Shown here piece by piece: positions 10,335-20,697 of a DNA stretch of 29,761 nucleotides; position 1 is the stretch's first letter, and each line of letters starts with the position of its first letter. Source of the stretch: a virus. Taxonomy: Duplodnaviria; Caudoviricetes. The notes below the pieces were generated by a model that did not search any database, was not told where the DNA came from, and saw only the letters and a program-made list of their open reading frames with translations. The DNA is taken from IMG/VR virus record IMGVR_UViG_3300044267_003698, positions 1 through 29,761 of that record; one strand, written 5' to 3'. Both the position numbers and the translations under genes were made by a program.

Positions 10335-10816
10335 TAATTCACGTCGAAGCTAGAGGATGCTGGCAGGTAGCCGAGATAGCTTTGAGTAATCTCTTCCTTG
10401 TCTTTCATGTCGGTTTCACGGTGGAGTACGGTATGGAAGGCTGAGATAAACTTCACAAGCTCTCTAGCGAACTGCACGCACTCACGCTTATGTGTGCTTT
10501 TGGCGTTATGCACCGGCTCATTAAGCTCCATGATAGTGGAATCGAACTTCTCTAGCATTGCTCTACAAAACCTGTGGTGTGTTGTAAGCGATGCGTTTGA
10601 GTAGGGCTTTAGTTTCGCGAGGATGTCTTTTGTTTCCTCTGCACAGATAAGGAACGTCGCCTTCATGTTCTGGACATCGGTAAGCTTCTTCTCTCCGTCA
10701 TCTGCTAGCGGCGGAGCGATAATGCAGTCCATCGTGTTCTTAATCTGCGAGATGTACTGTGCAAGCACACTCTCCACCATCCCTGCCGGGAAAATTGTCG
10801 TAACGGTTTCACCCAT
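10334..10816 (-). CDS. Hypothetical helical protein
   Basis: 160 aa; one-base stop/start overlaps with both neighbours (TGATG, TAATG). Confidence 0.7.
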   Translation of the reverse strand: MGETVTTIFPAGMVESVLAQYISQIKNTMDCIIAPPLADDGEKKLTDVQNMKATFLICAEETKDILAKLKPYSNASLTTHHRFCRAMLEKFDSTIMELNEPVHNAKSTHKRECVQFARELVKFISAFHTVLHRETDMKDKEEITQSYLGYLPASSSFDVN

Positions 10817-11079
10817 CAGTCACCCTCTACATGGTCTGATTTAATTTTATGGAGTGCGCGAAGCGACCTAACGGTAGCCTCAAGGTCATCGAGTACCTTG
10901 TGGATGCTAGGCGCTTCTCGCTTTCCTATTTCTTGCGTCTGAAAATAGAGGTCAAGCGCTTCCCTCATCATCCGACTCATACTCTTCCCCAGCTTCTTCT
11001 TTGCCTTTACGAGAGTCTTTAGCTGGCTTTCCCTTATCGCCAGAGTCGTGTTCTTCTTCACCCCGTGGTCCATCTTCAT
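10816..11079 (-). CDS. Ribbon-helix-helix (CopG-like) DNA-binding protein
   Basis: KNTTLAIRESQLKTLVKAKKKLGKSMSRMMREALDLYF fits the RHH pattern; ATGA overlap with the TerS-like stop. Confidence 0.7.
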   Translation of the reverse strand: MKMDHGVKKNTTLAIRESQLKTLVKAKKKLGKSMSRMMREALDLYFQTQEIGKREAPSIHKVLDDLEATVRSLRALHKIKSDHVEGD

Positions 11080-11660: not shown

Positions 11661-12218
11661 AAAGAACACCTTGGTACAATTCTTGAAGTGACCAGAAATA
11701 GACTGGCCGCTCGACCCAACATACCCGTATATGTAGGTTTTAATTACCCTTAATTCCAACACCTTATGGCTGTCAAGTAAGTTGCCACTTGACAAGGTAG
11801 TTGGCACGGGTGATGCAATTGTATTCCTATCCCCTCTTATGGATTCCTGTGCTTCGTTTAGGTTGTCTGGTTCAAGTAGTTCTGAGCCAGTTCAAAAACC
11901 TGACAAACCAAAAAACGGATTCCAAAATTGGACCGCGAGTTTTTGTGTCCCCTTTTTTTGAGCCCGCGAAAGCAAACCCCGTCCTCGACTCCTGACACTC
12001 CAGGCAGATTCCACCACGGGTCGACCTCCCATTGCGACAAATCGCATGGGGTATCGGAGAAAGGGGCTTGGAATTCCCAATGATGCGGGGGGGTCAATTT
12101 GGGGTATGGGAAATTTCCCTACACAATACCCCCGCCCTTTACTACTCCGCCACAATTCCCATCAAACCCTGACAGGCTATCAGATGCGCTTGGGTTGCGA
12201 TTTATTGTGTCAAGGTTC

Positions 12219-12247
12219 TTGACTGGTCGGGATTGTGCCTGTATGGT
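12219..12247 (+). promoter_or_regulatory. Sigma70-type early promoter
   Basis: TTGACT-17 bp-TATGGT upstream of the plus-strand operon. Confidence 0.7.
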
Positions 12248-12283: not shown

Positions 12284-12297
12284 AAACTAGGATGTGA
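12284..12297 (+). promoter_or_regulatory. RBS leader motif AAACTAGGATGTGA, copy 1
   Basis: 14-nt exact match to 14485-14498; ends 4 nt before ATG 12302. Confidence 0.75.
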
Positions 12298-12301
12298 TGT
12301 T

Positions 12302-12505
12302 ATGTTGTACGAAGAAGCAATCGCTTGGTTGTCATTGTTCGTTATCTTGTTCTTAGTCGTTTCAACGGTCTTTGCTCAGGAGTGGCTCGAGAGTAGGCGT
12401 CAGCTCGTATCAGAACGTGAGAACGCGGAGTTGATGCGGCTTAAGCTTGTAGCTGACATTAAGCGTCTTCGACGCATTGCCAATGATGGAGGCTTCTCAT
12501 GCTAG
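12302..12505 (+). CDS. Small membrane protein with coiled coil
   Basis: MLYEEAIAWLSLFVILFLVVSTVFA TM helix; start chosen from the RBS. Confidence 0.65.
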   Translation: MLYEEAIAWLSLFVILFLVVSTVFAQEWLESRRQLVSERENAELMRLKLVADIKRLRRIANDGGFSC

Positions 12506-12858
12506 GCGATACGGATAAAGCGTGGTTTGTTCTTCCTGACGTGCAGTCGATGATTCATCGGTGTTCTGCATTAGGTCCCTGGTTTGCGCGCACCCCCGAA
12601 GGATGGGACCTCTATACTGGCTCCAGTACGCCGGTTCAGATAACGGCCCACCTTAGCAGGCCTGATGAAGCTCTCAGTGTCCGTAAGGATTGGGAAGGTC
12701 CAGTGATGGAATCGCGCGCCGCTTGTGGCTGTGTTCGGTACCGTGCCGTTTATGCTTTTGAGCTTAAGCCTGTAGGCAAAGCGGGAGCGCTTGAAGTTTG
12801 CGTTCTCCTTAATTCCAAGACATGCGACCTAAAGCCAGTAGGGGGTGAATCATGCTAA
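12499..12858 (+). CDS. Hypothetical early protein
   Basis: 119 aa; SD plus overlap coupling at both ends. Confidence 0.65.
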   Translation: MLGDTDKAWFVLPDVQSMIHRCSALGPWFARTPEGWDLYTGSSTPVQITAHLSRPDEALSVRKDWEGPVMESRAACGCVRYRAVYAFELKPVGKAGALEVCVLLNSKTCDLKPVGGESC

Positions 12859-13349
12859 GCGCAGAACAGCTACAGTTATTAATGGCATGGATAGGCGGTG
12901 GATACGTTACGGGTGAGAGGAGAGAGTTGCTTTCAGCTCTCGTTGATAGCCTTGTGAATGACTATCCGTGTAGGCTTCACCTTGTTCAAGGCTCTATCAA
13001 TGCCTTGTATGAAACACGTCATAACATGGGCGGAATAGATTGGGATATGCAGCTCGACTTTATTGCCATTGAGAAGGCTCTTGTCAATCAGATGAATGGC
13101 ATTCTCAACGAATGGAGACTAGCCAAGAGGCTGGTCATTGATAGCAGGAAGCTTCCAAAGGGATACCCTGGGGGTCATAGGCGGATACGTGTATTTGCTA
13201 CCCGTATGGATGAATGCCGGTATCTAATGGCTGAGGATATGCTTGGCAAGCGTGAGCCTTCACTTGAACGGTTGCTTGCGCAAGTAAACGCCACAACAGC
13301 CAATCTAGAAGACTCACCAGACGCGATGAAGGAAGGCGCATCATGCTAA
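12852..13349 (+). CDS. Hypothetical early protein
   Basis: 165 aa; SD plus overlap coupling. Confidence 0.65.
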   Translation: MLSAEQLQLLMAWIGGGYVTGERRELLSALVDSLVNDYPCRLHLVQGSINALYETRHNMGGIDWDMQLDFIAIEKALVNQMNGILNEWRLAKRLVIDSRKLPKGYPGGHRRIRVFATRMDECRYLMAEDMLGKREPSLERLLAQVNATTANLEDSPDAMKEGASC

Positions 13350-13717
13350 TTAAAGAAGAGATTCTATTTTTACGCAACACCAGAGACGGTTCGCGCATTA
13401 CTCGGATGCTGGTGTTCGATAGCGAGTGGAGCCAAGCACACTGGGAAGGTCGGCGTGATGAAGTGCACGGGTCCCGAATGATTCGAGTGCCGGAAAAGCG
13501 TGCCTATGCTCTTCCCAATGGTGACCACGAGTTGATTCTGGTTAACCGCGAACAATGGGACAAAGCGCCACACCTAAAGCCTGGCCGATACCTTGGGCGG
13601 GTTATCTCGCATCATATAGCGGGTGAAGAGATGGACCGTTGTCTTGCGGATTGCGATGACTGTGACGAGTACAGGCGAGCAAGCGGGCTTTACTTAATGA
13701 GAGGTGAATCATGCTAG
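13343..13717 (+). CDS. Hypothetical early protein
   Basis: 124 aa; Cys cluster CxxxCxxC near the C-terminus; coupled. Confidence 0.65.
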   Translation: MLIKEEILFLRNTRDGSRITRMLVFDSEWSQAHWEGRRDEVHGSRMIRVPEKRAYALPNGDHELILVNREQWDKAPHLKPGRYLGRVISHHIAGEEMDRCLADCDDCDEYRRASGLYLMRGESC

Positions 13718-13923
13718 GCAAGACTGAAAGGCATTATACGTGCAGAGACTGCCATGGTTCGGATATTCATTCTCCTTTCTGGATTGACGTGAACACGCGA
13801 GAAGAAAAGGGAGCCTACACTGCGCAGGGTTACCCGTCGCGCTACCGCATTTTTTGGTGTGGTACGTGTGAGGAACCCAAGCAACATAGCAAGATTGAAT
13901 CACATATCATCGGAGGTGAATGA
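13711..13923 (+). CDS. Small zinc-ribbon protein
   Basis: Two CxxC pairs (CRDC...WCGTC). Confidence 0.65.
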   Translation: MLGKTERHYTCRDCHGSDIHSPFWIDVNTREEKGAYTAQGYPSRYRIFWCGTCEEPKQHSKIESHIIGGE

Positions 13924-14426
13924 TGCCAGCAGTGTATGAAGACTTCATCGAATGGACGTCAGGTAAAGAGTTAGAGAAAGAGATAGAGGCGCGCTTTCCG
14001 CTTTATATTGTGGACGGGGTCTTCCAGGAAGACAATTGTTCAACAGATGACGACTACTGGACAAACCGCAAGGGCGTTCTGCCATCGCTAGAGATAACCG
14101 CGCATGATGTTCTCGAGGTGCTCTTGTGGGCTAACGTGGTCCGCTATAGCTTCGACGACTATTACGCGGAAGATGATGAGTTTATCATCACACTCGATGA
14201 GATAGTTGACGCAATAGCAGAGCATAACAAGAACCCGTCCAGTCAATGGTTTAACCCCGCATCATTGTGTCGGTTCTATTTGAGTGACCTTCTAGACCCG
14301 GGTCGCAGCCTTTTGGTACACCTTGTCGAGAGTACAAGGGCAGAGGTCTGGAAGGGGAAAGAGCCGGAGATTGATGCTCAAGACTACCTAAAGCACCTGA
14401 TACAGGAACTGAAAATAAATTATTGA
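13920..14426 (+). CDS. Hypothetical acidic protein
   Basis: 168 aa, D/E-rich; GGAGG SD (start could be ATG 13923). Confidence 0.65.
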   Translation: MMPAVYEDFIEWTSGKELEKEIEARFPLYIVDGVFQEDNCSTDDDYWTNRKGVLPSLEITAHDVLEVLLWANVVRYSFDDYYAEDDEFIITLDEIVDAIAEHNKNPSSQWFNPASLCRFYLSDLLDPGRSLLVHLVESTRAEVWKGKEPEIDAQDYLKHLIQELKINY

Positions 14427-14441
14427 TTCCAGCTCGGAAGG

Positions 14442-14498
14442 GTGACCGTTTGGTTGTTCTTCCTATGGTGAAATCAATCACCCAAAACTAGGATGTGA
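14442..14498 (+). promoter_or_regulatory. Second early promoter and leader motif AAACTAGGATGTGA, copy 2
   Basis: GTGACC-16 bp-TATGGT (same -10 as the 12219 promoter); leader 14485-14498 ends 4 nt before ATG 14503. Confidence 0.55.
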
Positions 14499-14502
14499 GA
14501 CA

Positions 14503-15267
14503 ATGGATAAGGGTACCCGTGCGCCTGGTAGGCGTCAAGGCAGGCACAAAAGAAGGAAGGAGCAACGAAGAAAGAACGGTAGAAACTCAGAGGTTATATA
14601 CCGTGGACCGTCTGAAATAGACGGCGCCCCCATTATCGTAATCGTAACCGGACTCGCTAAAGCTTCAAGCAATCCCAAGACCGGCGACATGCTGCAAGTC
14701 TTCATCTTATTGCAAGATGTAGCGCCCAACCTGGCCACTAAGACCGGACAAGATGTTAGCATCTGCGCTAATTGCAAGCTTAGGCCGTTTCTATTTAAGA
14801 AAGGCGAGGTATCCAGAAAGCCTTGCTACGTCAAAGTATGGCAAGCCCCACTATCAACCTGGAAAGCGAACAAGGACCGAGAAGCAATTCCCTTGCAAGC
14901 TATCGCGCCACTAATAGCAGGAAGGCGATTAAGGCGCGGAGCATATGGGGACCCGCGCGCGGTTCCTGCTTATATATGGGCCGAGATTGACAATCCAGGA
15001 ACAGGCTACACTCATCAATGGGAAAACGCGGACATGCAATCGTTTCTCATGGCTTCAGTCCACTCAAAAGAAGAAAAGAAACGAGCCAATGACAGAGGAT
15101 ACCGCACGTTCAGAATTATCAGCGCATTAGATGAAGTCGGAGCGGATGAGATACTATGCCCGGCCAGTAAAGAAGCCGGAGCCCGAACTTCATGCGCGAA
15201 GTGTAACCTGTGCAACGGGAAGCGAGACAACGACAAGCGCAAAAACATTGCAATCATAGCACACTAA
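14503..15267 (+). CDS. Cys-rich phage protein, Gp88/DUF7227-like putative Fe-S protein
   Basis: SSNPKTG, ICANC...PCYV, R.GAYGDP, GYTHQW, MASV, CPAS...CAKCNLC motifs. Confidence 0.7.
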   Translation: MDKGTRAPGRRQGRHKRRKEQRRKNGRNSEVIYRGPSEIDGAPIIVIVTGLAKASSNPKTGDMLQVFILLQDVAPNLATKTGQDVSICANCKLRPFLFKKGEVSRKPCYVKVWQAPLSTWKANKDREAIPLQAIAPLIAGRRLRRGAYGDPRAVPAYIWAEIDNPGTGYTHQWENADMQSFLMASVHSKEEKKRANDRGYRTFRIISALDEVGADEILCPASKEAGARTSCAKCNLCNGKRDNDKRKNIAIIAH

Positions 15268-15280
15268 GTAAGGCGAAAAG

Positions 15281-15517
15281 ATGAATCATCAGCACAATTG
15301 CGAGCGCTGCCAAACAATCGGAACCATTAAGGATAGCGAGTTCAAGAGAACTTACGACTTGTATTATTGCGAAATAGGCGCAAAACCTACAGTCATTGCC
15401 AGGTACGGAAGCGAACCGCACGAGTACATGTCCGGCATGATATCAGCTAGGCGCGGAGTCTACCCGTTATCCGTTGCGCTATCAATGGCCACAGAAAAGG
15501 GTATCATTTCGCACTAG
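15281..15517 (+). CDS. Hypothetical protein
   Basis: 78 aa; HNCERC and YDLYYC...TVIARYG...EY.SG pattern of small phage proteins. Confidence 0.65.
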   Translation: MNHQHNCERCQTIGTIKDSEFKRTYDLYYCEIGAKPTVIARYGSEPHEYMSGMISARRGVYPLSVALSMATEKGIISH

Positions 15518-15538: not shown

Positions 15539-15584
15539 CAAAGGACCCTTCCTTAGTCGAAAGACTCAAGGTTAGGGTCCTTTG
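15539..15584. terminator. Long hairpin at the convergence of the early operon and the HTH gene
   Basis: CAAAGGACCCT-T-CCTT-AGTC-GAAA-GACT-C-AAGG-TT-AGGGTCCTTTG; no U tract. Confidence 0.5.
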
Positions 15585-15801
15585 CGCATGCAGCTGCGCC
15601 TACTCGGCGAACGGTAGCGGATAGGTCCATCTCAGGATAGGCGAGACTCAAGAGATACAATTCTTTGAGTGACATCCGCCTATGCCCGGCGCGTTTATGC
15701 GCGAGTGTTTCGCCTTTAATGCCCAAGACCTTCGCAACATTGGCAACACCATACGTGCGCGTAATCGCGTGAAGGTCAATTGTCTTTTTATAGTGGCTCA
15801 T
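15553..15801 (-). CDS. HTH (XRE/Cro-like) transcriptional regulator
   Basis: YGVANVAKVLGIKGETLAHKRAGHRRMSLKEL..L HTH pattern; start set at ATG 15801. Confidence 0.7.
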   Translation of the reverse strand: MSHYKKTIDLHAITRTYGVANVAKVLGIKGETLAHKRAGHRRMSLKELYLLSLAYPEMDLSATVRRVGAAACAKDPNLESFD

Positions 15802-15887
15802 GAGTGTGCATATATTCCACACGGCCCAAGGTGTCAAGTAACTTCACAGTAAGGGGTGGAAAGTAAGTAGACAGACAACCAACACAA

Positions 15888-15942
15888 TGTACCGAGCGGT
15901 ATATGTACCGAGCAGTACATAGAAAATGTACCGAGCGGTACA
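15888..15942. repeat. Three copies of a 16-bp palindrome TGTACCG-AG-CGGTACA (operator/iteron-like)
   Basis: 15888 TGTACCGAGCGGTATA; 15904 TGTACCGAGCAGTACA; 15927 TGTACCGAGCGGTACA. Confidence 0.85.
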
Positions 15943-16022
15943 GAAAAGTAAAATCCTGTGGGGATTTTCAGGACAATTCCACTAACACTCCAGGCTCCTA
16001 ACTCGAGTCTATCAAAAATAAA

Positions 16023-17899: not shown

Positions 17900-18527
17900 G
17901 CGAAGACTCCTCTACAATCGTAGGCCGAGGTCGCTCGTCTTGCGCTACGTCCATCACGTCCCTCCACTTCTCATCCTGCAACCAGCGGTGGAACCCTGGC
18001 ACATAACCGCCGGCCCATCCAGAGTTGGTGCTCTTCTCAAGCTTGATGGCAGAGGCTATCTGCATCCGGTCTACCAGCGGCATCTTGCGCCATACGTTCC
18101 AAGACTTACGCCTGCTCGAACGCTCCCTGCCTACCTTGGGGTAATCCTTCCAGGCATCCAAGAACACCTGGTCCTTGACCCAAGGCGTCTCATTGCGTGG
18201 AGCGTCACCCGCTTTCTTCAGAAGCTTGTTCTGGATATCTTGAGTCTCTTGCTTTTTAGCCAGAGCCTTCTCCGCGAGAGCACCTTTCCGCTGTACTCCT
18301 ATTGTCTCTGATATATTCTTTACCTTATTAGTTAATTCTAAATAAGAATTATTGCAAGGCGTGTGCCAAGGCTCATCGAGGAGCAGGCGATACACCGCTA
18401 ACACCACGGCATGATTGACAGAACTGCATAGTATGCCGTCCTTGCACACCACCTTAAGCGCATCCATCAAATACTTAGGGAATCGGATGGTCCGAACAAT
18501 CTGTTCTGTAACCGCTTCTTTACTCAT
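17886..18527 (-). CDS. Replication initiator / replisome organiser
   Basis: FLDAWKDYPK...SRRKSWNVWRK...YVP...RWL.DEKW domain upstream of the DnaC-like gene; RHH-like N-terminus. Confidence 0.7.
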   Translation of the reverse strand: MSKEAVTEQIVRTIRFPKYLMDALKVVCKDGILCSSVNHAVVLAVYRLLLDEPWHTPCNNSYLELTNKVKNISETIGVQRKGALAEKALAKKQETQDIQNKLLKKAGDAPRNETPWVKDQVFLDAWKDYPKVGRERSSRRKSWNVWRKMPLVDRMQIASAIKLEKSTNSGWAGGYVPGFHRWLQDEKWRDVMDVAQDERPRPTIVEESSHELF

Positions 18528-18597
18528 TGTGTAACCTCTTTGGTTGGAGTTGATAACCAGTTTGTAAATCTTTTTTCTTTACTATGCAAATACTTTC

Positions 18598-18623
18598 TTG
18601 ACAGGGGTGTCATACTTTATGCT
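18598..18623 (+). promoter_or_regulatory. Divergent promoter region; TTGACA inside palindrome TGACA-GGGG-TGTCA
   Basis: Perfect -35 hexamer at 18598 in the AT-rich gap between divergent operons; the -10 is ambiguous. Confidence 0.4.
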
Positions 18624-18660
18624 ACATATCGGGTGTAACACAACCCACCAGGAGATGGTG

Positions 18661-18957
18661 ATGGCAATTAAGATTGATATGACTAGCGAAAGCGTGAACC
18701 GGTACCAGGGTATCTGGACTCACCAGCTACAGATGATTGACGTGCTTCGTCGTACCATCATGACCGCTGACGAAATGGCCAAGGTGCTTGGCGCATTGTC
18801 GTTGGACATCGAGCCCCTCAACGAGGCATGCATGCACGTGTGCTCTTCAGCTACAGAGCTGTTGCAAGACCTCGACCGTGCACAAGGCACGCTGGAGACC
18901 ATGCTTGAGAACTTAGACACTGCCCTAGATGCACACTACGATAAGTCGTTTGACTAG
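18661..18957 (+). CDS. Hypothetical helical protein
   Basis: GGAG SD at 18651 supports ATG 18661. Confidence 0.65.
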   Translation: MAIKIDMTSESVNRYQGIWTHQLQMIDVLRRTIMTADEMAKVLGALSLDIEPLNEACMHVCSSATELLQDLDRAQGTLETMLENLDTALDAHYDKSFD

Positions 18958-19036
18958 GGTACAATACGCGAGCCGCTTTCCTTGGTCGGGCAGCGGTAAG
19001 TGGAATGCCATGCAAGGTAAGGCATGAATCCTTGCG

Positions 19037-19113
19037 GGGTGTCTGCCCCTTAACACCACAACACATCCTAGTGGGTTGCCGGTTTCGCTCGGCATCTCAA
19101 GGGGCAGACACCC
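19037..19113 (+). ncRNA. Candidate structured RNA (three-way junction), possible antisense sRNA
   Basis: Perfect 15-bp stem 19037-19051/19099-19113 enclosing two hairpins; strand inferred from flanking genes. Confidence 0.6.
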
Positions 19114-19137
19114 ATCTTTAACTTCAAGGAGGTACAA

Positions 19138-19677
19138 GTGGAGAAGAGAAGAAGCTCATGGGAAATCATGAACGACATCACTAAGATGGTGCATGATTAC
19201 ACCCACGTAATGTCGGACCCTGAATCCAGTGAGGTGGAAGCCGAGCACTACGAGAGTGAGTTCTGGAAGCAGTTCGATGCTGTCGTTAAGGAGCGCGACG
19301 AGAAGATGTTCGCGTGCAAGGTGGTAATAGAGAGGGCAAAGCTAGAGGCAGAGGAGGCTCGGAAGAAGTCTCGCCAGTGGACTGAGCGTGCCCGCATATT
19401 GAAGGGTCTGGCTGAGCGGGTGTCTGAGAATGTTGTCGGCATGATGACTGCCAACAATGACAAGAAGGTCACGCTCTCTGATAACTCCAAGGCTACGCTG
19501 TGCGAGCGCACCGCATATGACTTGGTGGGTGAGCTATGCCCCGACTCATTGCCAGATAGGTTCATTAAGAAGGAGGTCAATAAAGGTTTAATTAAGAAAG
19601 CGTTAAGGCAGAAAGAAGAAGTAAAAGGGGTGACCCTTAAAGAAAGGACAACAAGGTTTATACGATGGTCAATCTGA
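19138..19677 (+). CDS. Siphovirus Gp157-like (Gam-like) protein
   Basis: Coiled coil plus LPDRFIK.EVNK.LIKKAL...EEVKGVTL C-terminus; AAGGAGG SD. Confidence 0.75.
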   Translation: MEKRRSSWEIMNDITKMVHDYTHVMSDPESSEVEAEHYESEFWKQFDAVVKERDEKMFACKVVIERAKLEAEEARKKSRQWTERARILKGLAERVSENVVGMMTANNDKKVTLSDNSKATLCERTAYDLVGELCPDSLPDRFIKKEVNKGLIKKALRQKEEVKGVTLKERTTRFIRWSI

Positions 19678-20165
19678 AGAATAAGAAAAGAATCTGGGAC
19701 GAGGTGAAGTGCACCGACCCCCGGTTCACAAAGAAGGTTTCCAAGGGTGCATACGGTTTCACCGCAGTCGATGCCCACTACAACGTGCTTAAGGCTACCG
19801 AGATATTCGGTGCTCATGGCGACGGGTGGGGGTGGGACATCATTGAGCACTCCGTTATCGACGGCGTGTTCATGGTAACCGTGCAGCTTTGGTACAGCGA
19901 AGAGATGGGCCTCGGCCCTGAAGGTGAGGTGATGGTCGCAAGGCGCACGTGTAGCCCGGTGTTTGGTACCTGCAAGTTCAAGGGTACGAACAAGAGGGGA
20001 GACTTCATTGACGAGGAGGCACCCAAGAAAGCCCTGACTGACGCGCTGTCTAAGGCGTGGAGTTACCTAGGGTTCTCGGCGGATGTGTTCCTCGGGTTCT
20101 TCGACAATCACAAGTATGTGCAGTCAATGACACAAAGGTTTAGCAAGGAGAAAGCAAGTGAGTGA
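19665..20165 (+). CDS. Rad52/Rad22-like single-strand annealing protein
   Basis: FTAVDA.Y....ATEIFG..G.GWGW and DEEAPKKALTDALSKA.SYLGFSADVF motifs. Confidence 0.75.
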   Translation: MVNLKNKKRIWDEVKCTDPRFTKKVSKGAYGFTAVDAHYNVLKATEIFGAHGDGWGWDIIEHSVIDGVFMVTVQLWYSEEMGLGPEGEVMVARRTCSPVFGTCKFKGTNKRGDFIDEEAPKKALTDALSKAWSYLGFSADVFLGFFDNHKYVQSMTQRFSKEKASE

Positions 20166-20697
20166 ATGGACGTTTAGCGCAAAAGAGTATACGCCTGCAC
20201 CGCAGGAGCCCAAGACAGACCCGAAGTGGTCCTACAATACAGTGGTGCCAGAGGGCACGTACCGTGCAGACATTGGCCTGGTGCGTTGGAAGCACTGGGA
20301 CGATGGCGGAAAGACACTGAAGGTGTTCTTCAACCTTGGAACCAACGACAACGGGACCGAGCACATCATCTTCGTATGGGACTGTAGCGTTGTGAACAAG
20401 CGCAACAGCAAGTACGAGGACAAAGCAAAGCACATGCTCTATGAGCTATGCACTGTGCTTCAGGTCGACGACCTGTCTGAGTCCACGATAGAGCAACCCA
20501 TTGGCTCAGGTGGAATCTTAGGCGGGAAGTGCCGCGTCAAGCTTGTAGTGCTTGAGCCTAGCGACAGGTTCCCAGACCCCAAGAACTGGCTAGTGGGCTT
20601 TCGCTCCGTCGATGGAGATAAGCCCCATCAGGTAGACCAGGGAAAGGTAGAGGCCAGCGTAGTCGATGATTACGACGACGATGACATACCGTTCTAG
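20158..20697 (+). CDS. Phage single-stranded DNA-binding protein (DUF669-like)
   Basis: VVPEGTY N-terminal motif and acidic DDDDIPF tail; follows the SSAP gene. Confidence 0.75.
   Translation: MSEWTFSAKEYTPAPQEPKTDPKWSYNTVVPEGTYRADIGLVRWKHWDDGGKTLKVFFNLGTNDNGTEHIIFVWDCSVVNKRNSKYEDKAKHMLYELCTVLQVDDLSESTIEQPIGSGGILGGKCRVKLVVLEPSDRFPDPKNWLVGFRSVDGDKPHQVDQGKVEASVVDDYDDDDIPF

Follow-up and report, generated by a model that had tools for sequence, protein, structure and literature searches.

The viral DNA analyzed here, a stretch of 29,761 nt that we refer to as the window, carries, in our best reading of the predicted folds and alignments, a conserved structured element of approximately 140 nt on its plus strand (18972–19113). 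Within this element, a short seed is complementary to the ribosome-binding sites of leaders encoded by the same phage. The RNA structure is real, conserved, and uncatalogued, its antisense seed is well placed, and it probably has a function: We consider it rather likely that it acts as a plus-strand antisense RNA, similar but unrelated to C4, which would damp early translation from two leaders (targets 1 and 2 below). An earlier note on this DNA had proposed an antisense RNA of about 77 nt directed against these two leaders; a third target, an upstream hairpin, and a candidate pseudoknot are new beyond that finding. The element consists of the following features:

18960–18965, plus strand: candidate −10 hexamer TACAAT (TATGAT in the copies L023 and L025; alignment A4), 7 nt before the 5′ hairpin
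18972–18997, plus strand: 5′ hairpin of the element, predicted in the window, L023, and L025
19005–19035, plus strand: candidate H-type pseudoknot directly 5′ of the closing stem, with 11 of 11 pairs kept in 6 copies
19037–19113, plus strand: candidate antisense RNA domain with a long closing stem, a 5′ bulge, and inner helices (fold, 6 copies)
19063–19072, plus strand: seed ACATCCTAGT, complementary to the target leaders, with none of its 10 columns varying in 6 copies

The window is a linear virus record, which its collection estimates to be 80% complete. The phage is of marine origin, as members of its cluster derive from Tara and other marine sources, and the holders are seawater, marine, and sponge metagenomes; none of those listed is an RNA data set, which is uninformative about expression. 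Packaging and structural genes as well as a replication module with a DnaC-like loader lie on the minus strand, while the plus strand carries a cluster of small genes (12302 to 15517) and a unit that includes a Gam-like gene (18661–20697). Approximately 4.5 kb that are absent from the window were supplied by the contig of a relative; none of the five long frames in that stretch matched an integrase or repressor, and no integrase or antirepressor family was found among the window proteins and the 5 scanned proteins of the missing stretch. No DNA match to annotated phages was obtained, and the relatives of the terminase were all below 30%.

Five further copies of the element were identified (L001 and L022–L025), resulting in six copies that represent approximately four haplotypes, all of them close; four additional runs yielded contigs of the same types. 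The closing stem pairs 19037–19050 with 19100–19113, and 14 of 14 pairs are kept in each of the 6 copies; the perfect 15-bp stem described previously for the window (19037–19051 with 19099–19113) is present in the sequence. The stem starts with GGG and is directly followed by an invariant ATC in all 6 copies, with lengths of 66–77 nt. The 77-mer is predicted to fold with −42.1 kcal/mol (z = −6.5), which was equaled by none of 200 shuffles, and the predicted form is the three-stem cloverleaf drawn in the earlier note. While this cloverleaf is the minimum in the window, L001, and L024, where it lies 1.2–2.1 kcal/mol below a bulged fold, it is not the conserved fold, being absent in L023; its first inner hairpin is missing in L023 and down to 3 bp in L025. 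The alignment consensus corresponds to the bulged fold, in which the seed lies in an open bulge and which lies no more than 2.1 kcal/mol above the minimum in each of the 5 variants folded. Its inner helices pair 19072–19075 with 19096–19099 and 19077–19082 with 19089–19094, with one both-sided change (L023). The assignment of the 11-mer to a loop needs a corresponding qualification, as the seed is open in the bulged consensus, but its last two bases are paired in the minimum-energy fold of the window. Opening 9 nt of the seed is predicted to cost 0.2–2.9 kcal/mol in all 5 variants folded.

The extent of about 77 nt turned out to be too short, since the upstream hairpin and the candidate pseudoknot add to the element. 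In the 5′ hairpin, 96% of cells are paired, with one both-sided change in L023. The pseudoknot helices (19005–19009 with 19021–19025 and 19012–19017 with 19030–19035) show one both-sided change each, in L025 only. Of the 260 cells of the whole structure, 98.5% are paired, and the four both-sided changes over four helices were matched in 0 of 500 column shuffles, a comparison in which the structure was derived from the tested sequences and related sequences can, as the tool warns, inflate the score relative to the shuffle control. No clear promoter or terminator bounding the RNA was found by the promoter scan of the window. The hexamer at 18960–18965 has no good −35 and is not in the output of the scan, which gives a site at 18914–18942 in its place, and an internal promoter near 18960–18965 is only a guess from the sequence. 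A self-cleaving ribozyme upstream was considered as well and dropped, as there was no Rfam match and the parts required for it were not seen.

The leaders that the seed could pair with, together with their genes and neighbors, are as follows:

12286–12306, plus strand: target 1, covering the leader of the first early gene and its start (rank 1 of 37 leaders)
12302–12505, plus strand: target 1 gene, encoding a 67-aa, membrane-type protein with an N-terminal hydrophobic stretch
14436–14463, plus strand: predicted 12-bp hairpin before target 2, a candidate processing or stabilizing element
14487–14497, plus strand: target 2, leader of a 254-aa gene (11 pairs, rank 2 of 37 leaders)
14503–15267, plus strand: target 2 gene, encoding a cysteine-rich phage protein (phrog_2554, E = 3.6e-60)
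18641–18653, plus strand: target 3, the leader of the gene that immediately precedes the element, complementary to 19066–19078 at 12 of 13 positions in the window
18661–18957, plus strand: target 3 gene, encoding a 98-aa protein without a family match
19138–20697, plus strand: downstream genes, encoding a Gam-like protein (Sipho_Gp157), a protein labelled exonuclease by PHROGs, and an acidic-tailed 179-aa protein

The 11-mer ACTAGGATGTG has two plus-strand copies, at 12286 and 14487, and one minus-strand copy, at 19062–19072, as reported in the earlier note, and both plus-strand copies indeed span an AGGA Shine-Dalgarno-like site of real-looking genes (ATG at 12302 and ATG at 14503). At up to one mismatch, the window contains 3 matches to this 11-mer, a number reached in 0 of 100 shuffles. 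However, the expectation of 0.014 occurrences that had been given for it is post hoc, as the motif was chosen after the fact: The window has 2 independent 11-mer families with two copies on one strand and one copy on the other, and 60 order-4 Markov genomes contained a mean of 2.0 such 11-mers, with at least one in 85% of them. The antisense case rests on placement and conservation. With respect to placement, among all 11-mers of both strands of the window, 19062–19072 alone is complementary to two of 37 leaders, a set of gene starts picked by hand from the ORF list. Among 3,000 shuffles of the inner 47 bases, complementarity to two leaders was found once at 11 bases, 5 times at 10, and 31 times at 9.

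Binding energies were calculated with our own script, counting the opening costs. Targets 1 and 2 ranked first and second among the 37 leaders (−15.0 and −11.2 kcal/mol), followed by the next leader at −5.0 kcal/mol, and the lowest energy in 399 random windows (−10.1 kcal/mol) was weaker than both. In the harder control, provided by inner shuffles, 16 of 306 bound two leaders at −11.2 kcal/mol or better, and 2 of 306 matched both values. When the opening costs were left out, the raw duplex energy did not distinguish the targets from background. On its own, the binding energy is modest evidence for the antisense reading.

The predicted pairing with target 1 reaches 18 of 21 positions. A promoter-like site (12219–12247) lies upstream, with target 1 approximately 40 bases past it, and the 11-mer of target 1 is retained in L030, though a nearby hairpin loop differs there. 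The protein encoded by the target 1 gene has 28 homologues with 72–100% identity, 26 of which are 67 aa long; it is unusually polymorphic and without a family over the cut-off. Small size, a hydrophobic start, and such polymorphism are common among host-interaction or exclusion proteins. Further downstream of target 1, consecutive early genes (12499–13920) overlap at a recurring GAGGTGAATCATG-type junction, which is consistent with translational coupling.

For target 2, the same 12-bp stem before the leader is predicted in the window and in both copies of L025 despite sequence changes (z = −0.9 in the window, and −3.2 and −2.5 in L025). L025 holds two target-2-type leaders, with 11 and 10 matching bases. 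The protein of the target 2 gene has atlas look-alikes at 0.95–0.96, a minority of which are labelled DUF7227 or GP88. The description of the two leaders as belonging to the first gene of each early unit applies to 12286, which heads the first early gene, while 14487 is only a candidate for a second operon start, since a conserved RNA hairpin precedes the leader and the −10 look-alike before it reads CATGGT in both L025 copies, with the first T lost. The hairpin and leader form a cassette (14428–14505 in the window) that occurs twice in L025 (1426–1502 and 1816–1895), with an extra gene between the copies. The gene after the second L025 cassette differs from that of the window, and this is likely a gene-shuffling site.

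Target 3 is complementary to the RNA at 13 of 13 positions in most relatives. The mismatch in the window is caused by a C at 18649, which is found in the window alone, while a T is present in all 5 loci and all 4 runs compared. With this C, the predicted pairing with the RNA is weaker, and a local hairpin that covers the ribosome-binding site is more stable (−9.7 versus −7.4 kcal/mol). The energies calculated for target 3 in its natural pairs were −3.0 kcal/mol in the window, −8.6 to −10.0 kcal/mol for the four other cognate pairs or types, and −5.3 kcal/mol in L023. Between the RNA and target 3, an extended collinear pairing of 25–28 pairs would be possible, most of whose gain is cancelled by opening costs. 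L023 provides the sole change in trans that was seen, a G-to-A exchange at 19073 matched by a C-to-T exchange in its target 3; the change at 19073 also has a partner change inside the RNA (19098). Swapping the partners gave a one-sided result (window-type RNA on the L023 site, −2.8 versus about −9 kcal/mol), and, judged by energy, the L023 RNA shows no preference for the target 3 of L023 (−5.3 kcal/mol versus −6.1 to −7.3 kcal/mol for others). The haplotypes also differ from one another in their outer loop.

In 3 of the 4 additional runs (X13, X14, and X19), position 18640 is the site of an insertion of approximately 265 bases that brings its own ribosome-binding site and ATG. The insert sits between the promoter region and target 3, and L024 contains its end. 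A seed match is absent from the leader of the inserted gene, so that the prediction that the leader at the operon head carries the match failed, and target 3 is tied to the gene of 98 residues rather than to the first position. Targets 1 and 2 both offer partners for the first three bases of the seed, which target 3 mostly lacks, and the conservation of these bases is therefore not explained by the upstream leader alone.

These observations bear on the reading that the element acts in cis only, serving the Gam-like recombination genes as a structured leader, processing site, or attenuator, with a bulge that pairs at most with target 3 and early leaders that share the motif through cassette duplication. 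The element does lie between genes of the same strand, 24 nt before the Gam-like start, and a pseudoknot with hairpins would fit an mRNA leader. Moreover, L025 has the duplicated hairpin-plus-leader cassette with its extra gene, comparable to regulatory cassettes in T4-type phages that get duplicated in a like manner (PMC2839356), and P4 CI likewise works within its own operon (PMC4825925). However, targets 1 and 2 outpair target 3 in every cross tested, the invariance of the seed bases with partners only in targets 1 and 2 would be left unexplained, target 3 is mismatched in the window, and the predicted binding at the downstream leader (19138) is nil. We therefore regard an action restricted to cis as rather unlikely.

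With regard to conservation, alignment A4 shows 0 of 10 variable columns in the seed, compared to 11 of 12 in the bulge just 5′ of it and 17 of 27 in the helices just 3′ of it, with much of the latter variation due to L023. The seed core is constant in the 6 copies, and no covariation of seed and target was observed there; both the RNA and the early target are present only in L025 and the window. Three pairs of the closing stem vary, on one side each, and all three become G-U on the plus strand, which corresponds to A-C on the minus strand. This pattern favors a plus-strand RNA, with the three events by themselves having a chance of approximately 1 in 8. Furthermore, all 4 copies that are not identical to the window have the better fold on the plus strand, while in the window itself the minus strand is slightly better (−44.4 versus −42.1 kcal/mol).

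The strand also matters for the suggestion that the leaders share a site for a CsrA/RsmA-like or phage-encoded RNA-binding repressor, with the copy at 19062 being a minus-strand decoy or the leader of a small antisense gene. In the window, a six-base loop closed by AC and GU may present GGA in targets 1 and 2, a five-base loop may do so in target 3, and the minus-strand motif resembles the other leaders in being preceded by a hairpin and followed by a GTG. Compared with the CsrA consensus RUACARGGAUGU (PMC7652899), however, the ACA that is invariant in CsrA ligands is ACU in these leaders, none of the three minus-strand GGA is fully unpaired in the predicted fold, the promoter scan gave no promoter-like site upstream on the minus strand, and the stem changes would be A-C mismatches on that strand. 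As a protein site at 19062 requires a minus-strand RNA, against which the stem changes speak, this reading is disfavored and appears improbable. A small gene on the minus strand was rejected as a candidate, as it is not conserved: It spans 44, 44, 34, and 44 codons in four copies, is missing from L023, and lies in a different frame in L025.

It is very improbable that the 11-mer is instead a DNA operator for a phage repressor, usable in either orientation. A ribbon-helix-helix protein is encoded by the phage (10816–11079), and repeats regardless of orientation would suit a DNA site, yet every sense copy lies exactly on a Shine-Dalgarno site, the motif is not palindromic, target 1 is about 40 bases beyond the promoter-like site, and the lone inverted copy sits in the bulge of an RNA fold that tolerates G-U pairs. 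Equally small is the probability that an inverted leader copy was captured in a functional hairpin as a relic or chance match without present function, as might be suspected from the genome-wide abundance of 11-mer triples and from the collinearity of the RNA 3′ half with the target 3 reverse complement (about 25 pairs), such as an inverted duplication leaves, because indels have altered the bulge bases adjacent to the constant seed in three of four haplotypes.

Searches for more distant copies were performed in several ways. Our own covariance model returned only the 6 known copies among 57 sources, intermediate relatives are known as proteins (57–70% identity), and a genome scan revealed 28 distant prophage homologues. 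In viral-contig scans, the Gam-like protein, the exonuclease-labelled protein, and the alignment of the latter each found only one contig, while the pattern of the target 1 gene found 2 contigs, both known. The loop pattern gave 20 loci among viral contigs, with the hairpin only in the contig already found, and the stem pattern gave 2 loci, 1 of them unrelated. Among the at least 119 loci listed for the leader pattern, 2 were near-identical relatives, and no stem-held seed was found in the rest of those listed.

Taken together with the preferred antisense reading, the following course of events can be proposed. The RNA would be made as part of the recombination operon or start internally near 18972, and the closing stem, perhaps with the pseudoknot and the 5′ hairpin, may protect it or mark an excision site, so that it could be released or kept as a stable species. 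The open seed might nucleate pairing without the need for a chaperone, and by pairing over the Shine-Dalgarno sites of targets 1 and 2 it would block their translation. As the RNA accumulates, it could damp early host-interaction genes and act as a timer of the early-to-middle transition, with a weaker feedback on its own operon through target 3. From the initial proposal of an RNA that shuts off early translation, the plus-strand fold, the invariant and cheaply opened seed, and targets that are kept and ranked first and second were retained, while the cloverleaf, the length, and the operon claim were not. Its second suggestion, superinfection immunity, was weakened, since there is no match to the C4 family and no lysogeny genes were found; immunity to a second infecting phage would follow if the RNA were present in a phage-carrying cell.

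More tentatively, the element could be an RNA-only master switch, that is, a pseudoknot-capped small RNA with no sequence relationship to catalogued families, in a phage with no detectable lysogeny module, whose seed shuts several leaders and feeds back on its own operon, while its flanks tune the choice of leader; we see this as a possibility rather than as an expectation. If a small, integrase-free marine phage used a multi-leader RNA directed against ribosome-binding sites, this would show that early gene expression can be timed by RNA alone, while C4, CI, sar, OOP, and aQ, as found described, concern lysis versus lysogeny in temperate coliphages at one locus each. In any case, the module is compact and testable, comprising 66–77 nt, a 10-base seed, three natural target types, and one natural escape-like mismatch.

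C4 of P1 and P7, to which the earlier note had likened the element, is a processed 77-base RNA with a loop that occludes a ribosome-binding site (PMC5320573, PMC8198154). Membership in this family was not borne out by the Rfam scan, which gave 0 matches at the gathering score; the covariance model RF01695 gave 0 matches at E up to 10 against the phage's own genome, and Rfam at E up to 10 over 18500–19300 gave 4 chance-level hits, none of them C4. The candidate RNA domain resembles C4 (RF01695) in its approximately 77 nt, its long closing stem, its position within an operon, its exposed segment against a ribosome-binding site, and a partial complement encoded elsewhere in the phage (PMC5320573); the C4 trait of a loop complementary to a ribosome-binding site thus appears to be present in the predicted structure. 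C4 is cut from a precursor by RNase P, and the second of its two recognition loops pairs upstream and gives specificity. In contrast to C4, with its three stem-loops, the conserved fold here is a bulged hairpin, a second specificity loop is only a candidate, and a pseudoknot precedes the element. Furthermore, icd, ant, C1, and an integrase were not found here, the neighbors are the 98-aa gene and the Gam-like gene instead of a c4-icd-ant operon, and the strongest targets belong to the early cluster, at distances of 4.5 and 6.8 kb, and not to the operon of the element itself.

P4 CI causes premature transcription termination. It pairs with a site upstream in its own transcript (PMC4825925). Our element is similarly internal to an operon and complementary to an upstream site of the same transcript (target 3, like seqA; PMC4825925), but there is no downstream target like seqC, additional targets are found in other transcription units, the targets are ribosome-binding sites rather than demonstrated terminators, and an Rfam match was not obtained. 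Sar of P22 as well as OOP and aQ of lambda are likewise phage RNAs that repress phage genes by pairing, with sar blocking translation initiation (PMC12197685); unlike these RNAs, which are read opposite one target, the element is encoded elsewhere and would use a short seed against several leaders. The STAXI motif is also a pseudoknot RNA near DNA-handling genes and occurs occasionally beside c4 RNAs (PMC2864571), but it has two or three tandem pseudoknots, compared to the one candidate pseudoknot here, which has no Rfam match. In the accessible part of a review of phage small RNAs (PMC12197685), no RNA of such an arrangement is mentioned, and our targeted literature search found nothing on anti-Shine-Dalgarno phage small RNAs directed against early genes. 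None of four motif strings occurred in the 6 supplementary files covered from a large phage RNA survey (PMC10690425).

Some further observations concern other parts of the window. The ribbon-helix-helix protein (10816–11079, minus strand; Pfam RHH_1 over the cut-off) is encoded within the packaging operon. A small frame that ends the replication module (15553–15837, minus strand) looks helix-turn-helix-like by eye, with no match in Pfam or NCBIfam. Beside this module, a gene-poor stretch contains three direct repeats (15887–15947) at a spacing of 16–23 bases, which are candidate origin iterons. Finally, short inverted repeats at 18599–18612 and 12208–12224 overlap −35-like hexamers of two promoters and are possible operators.
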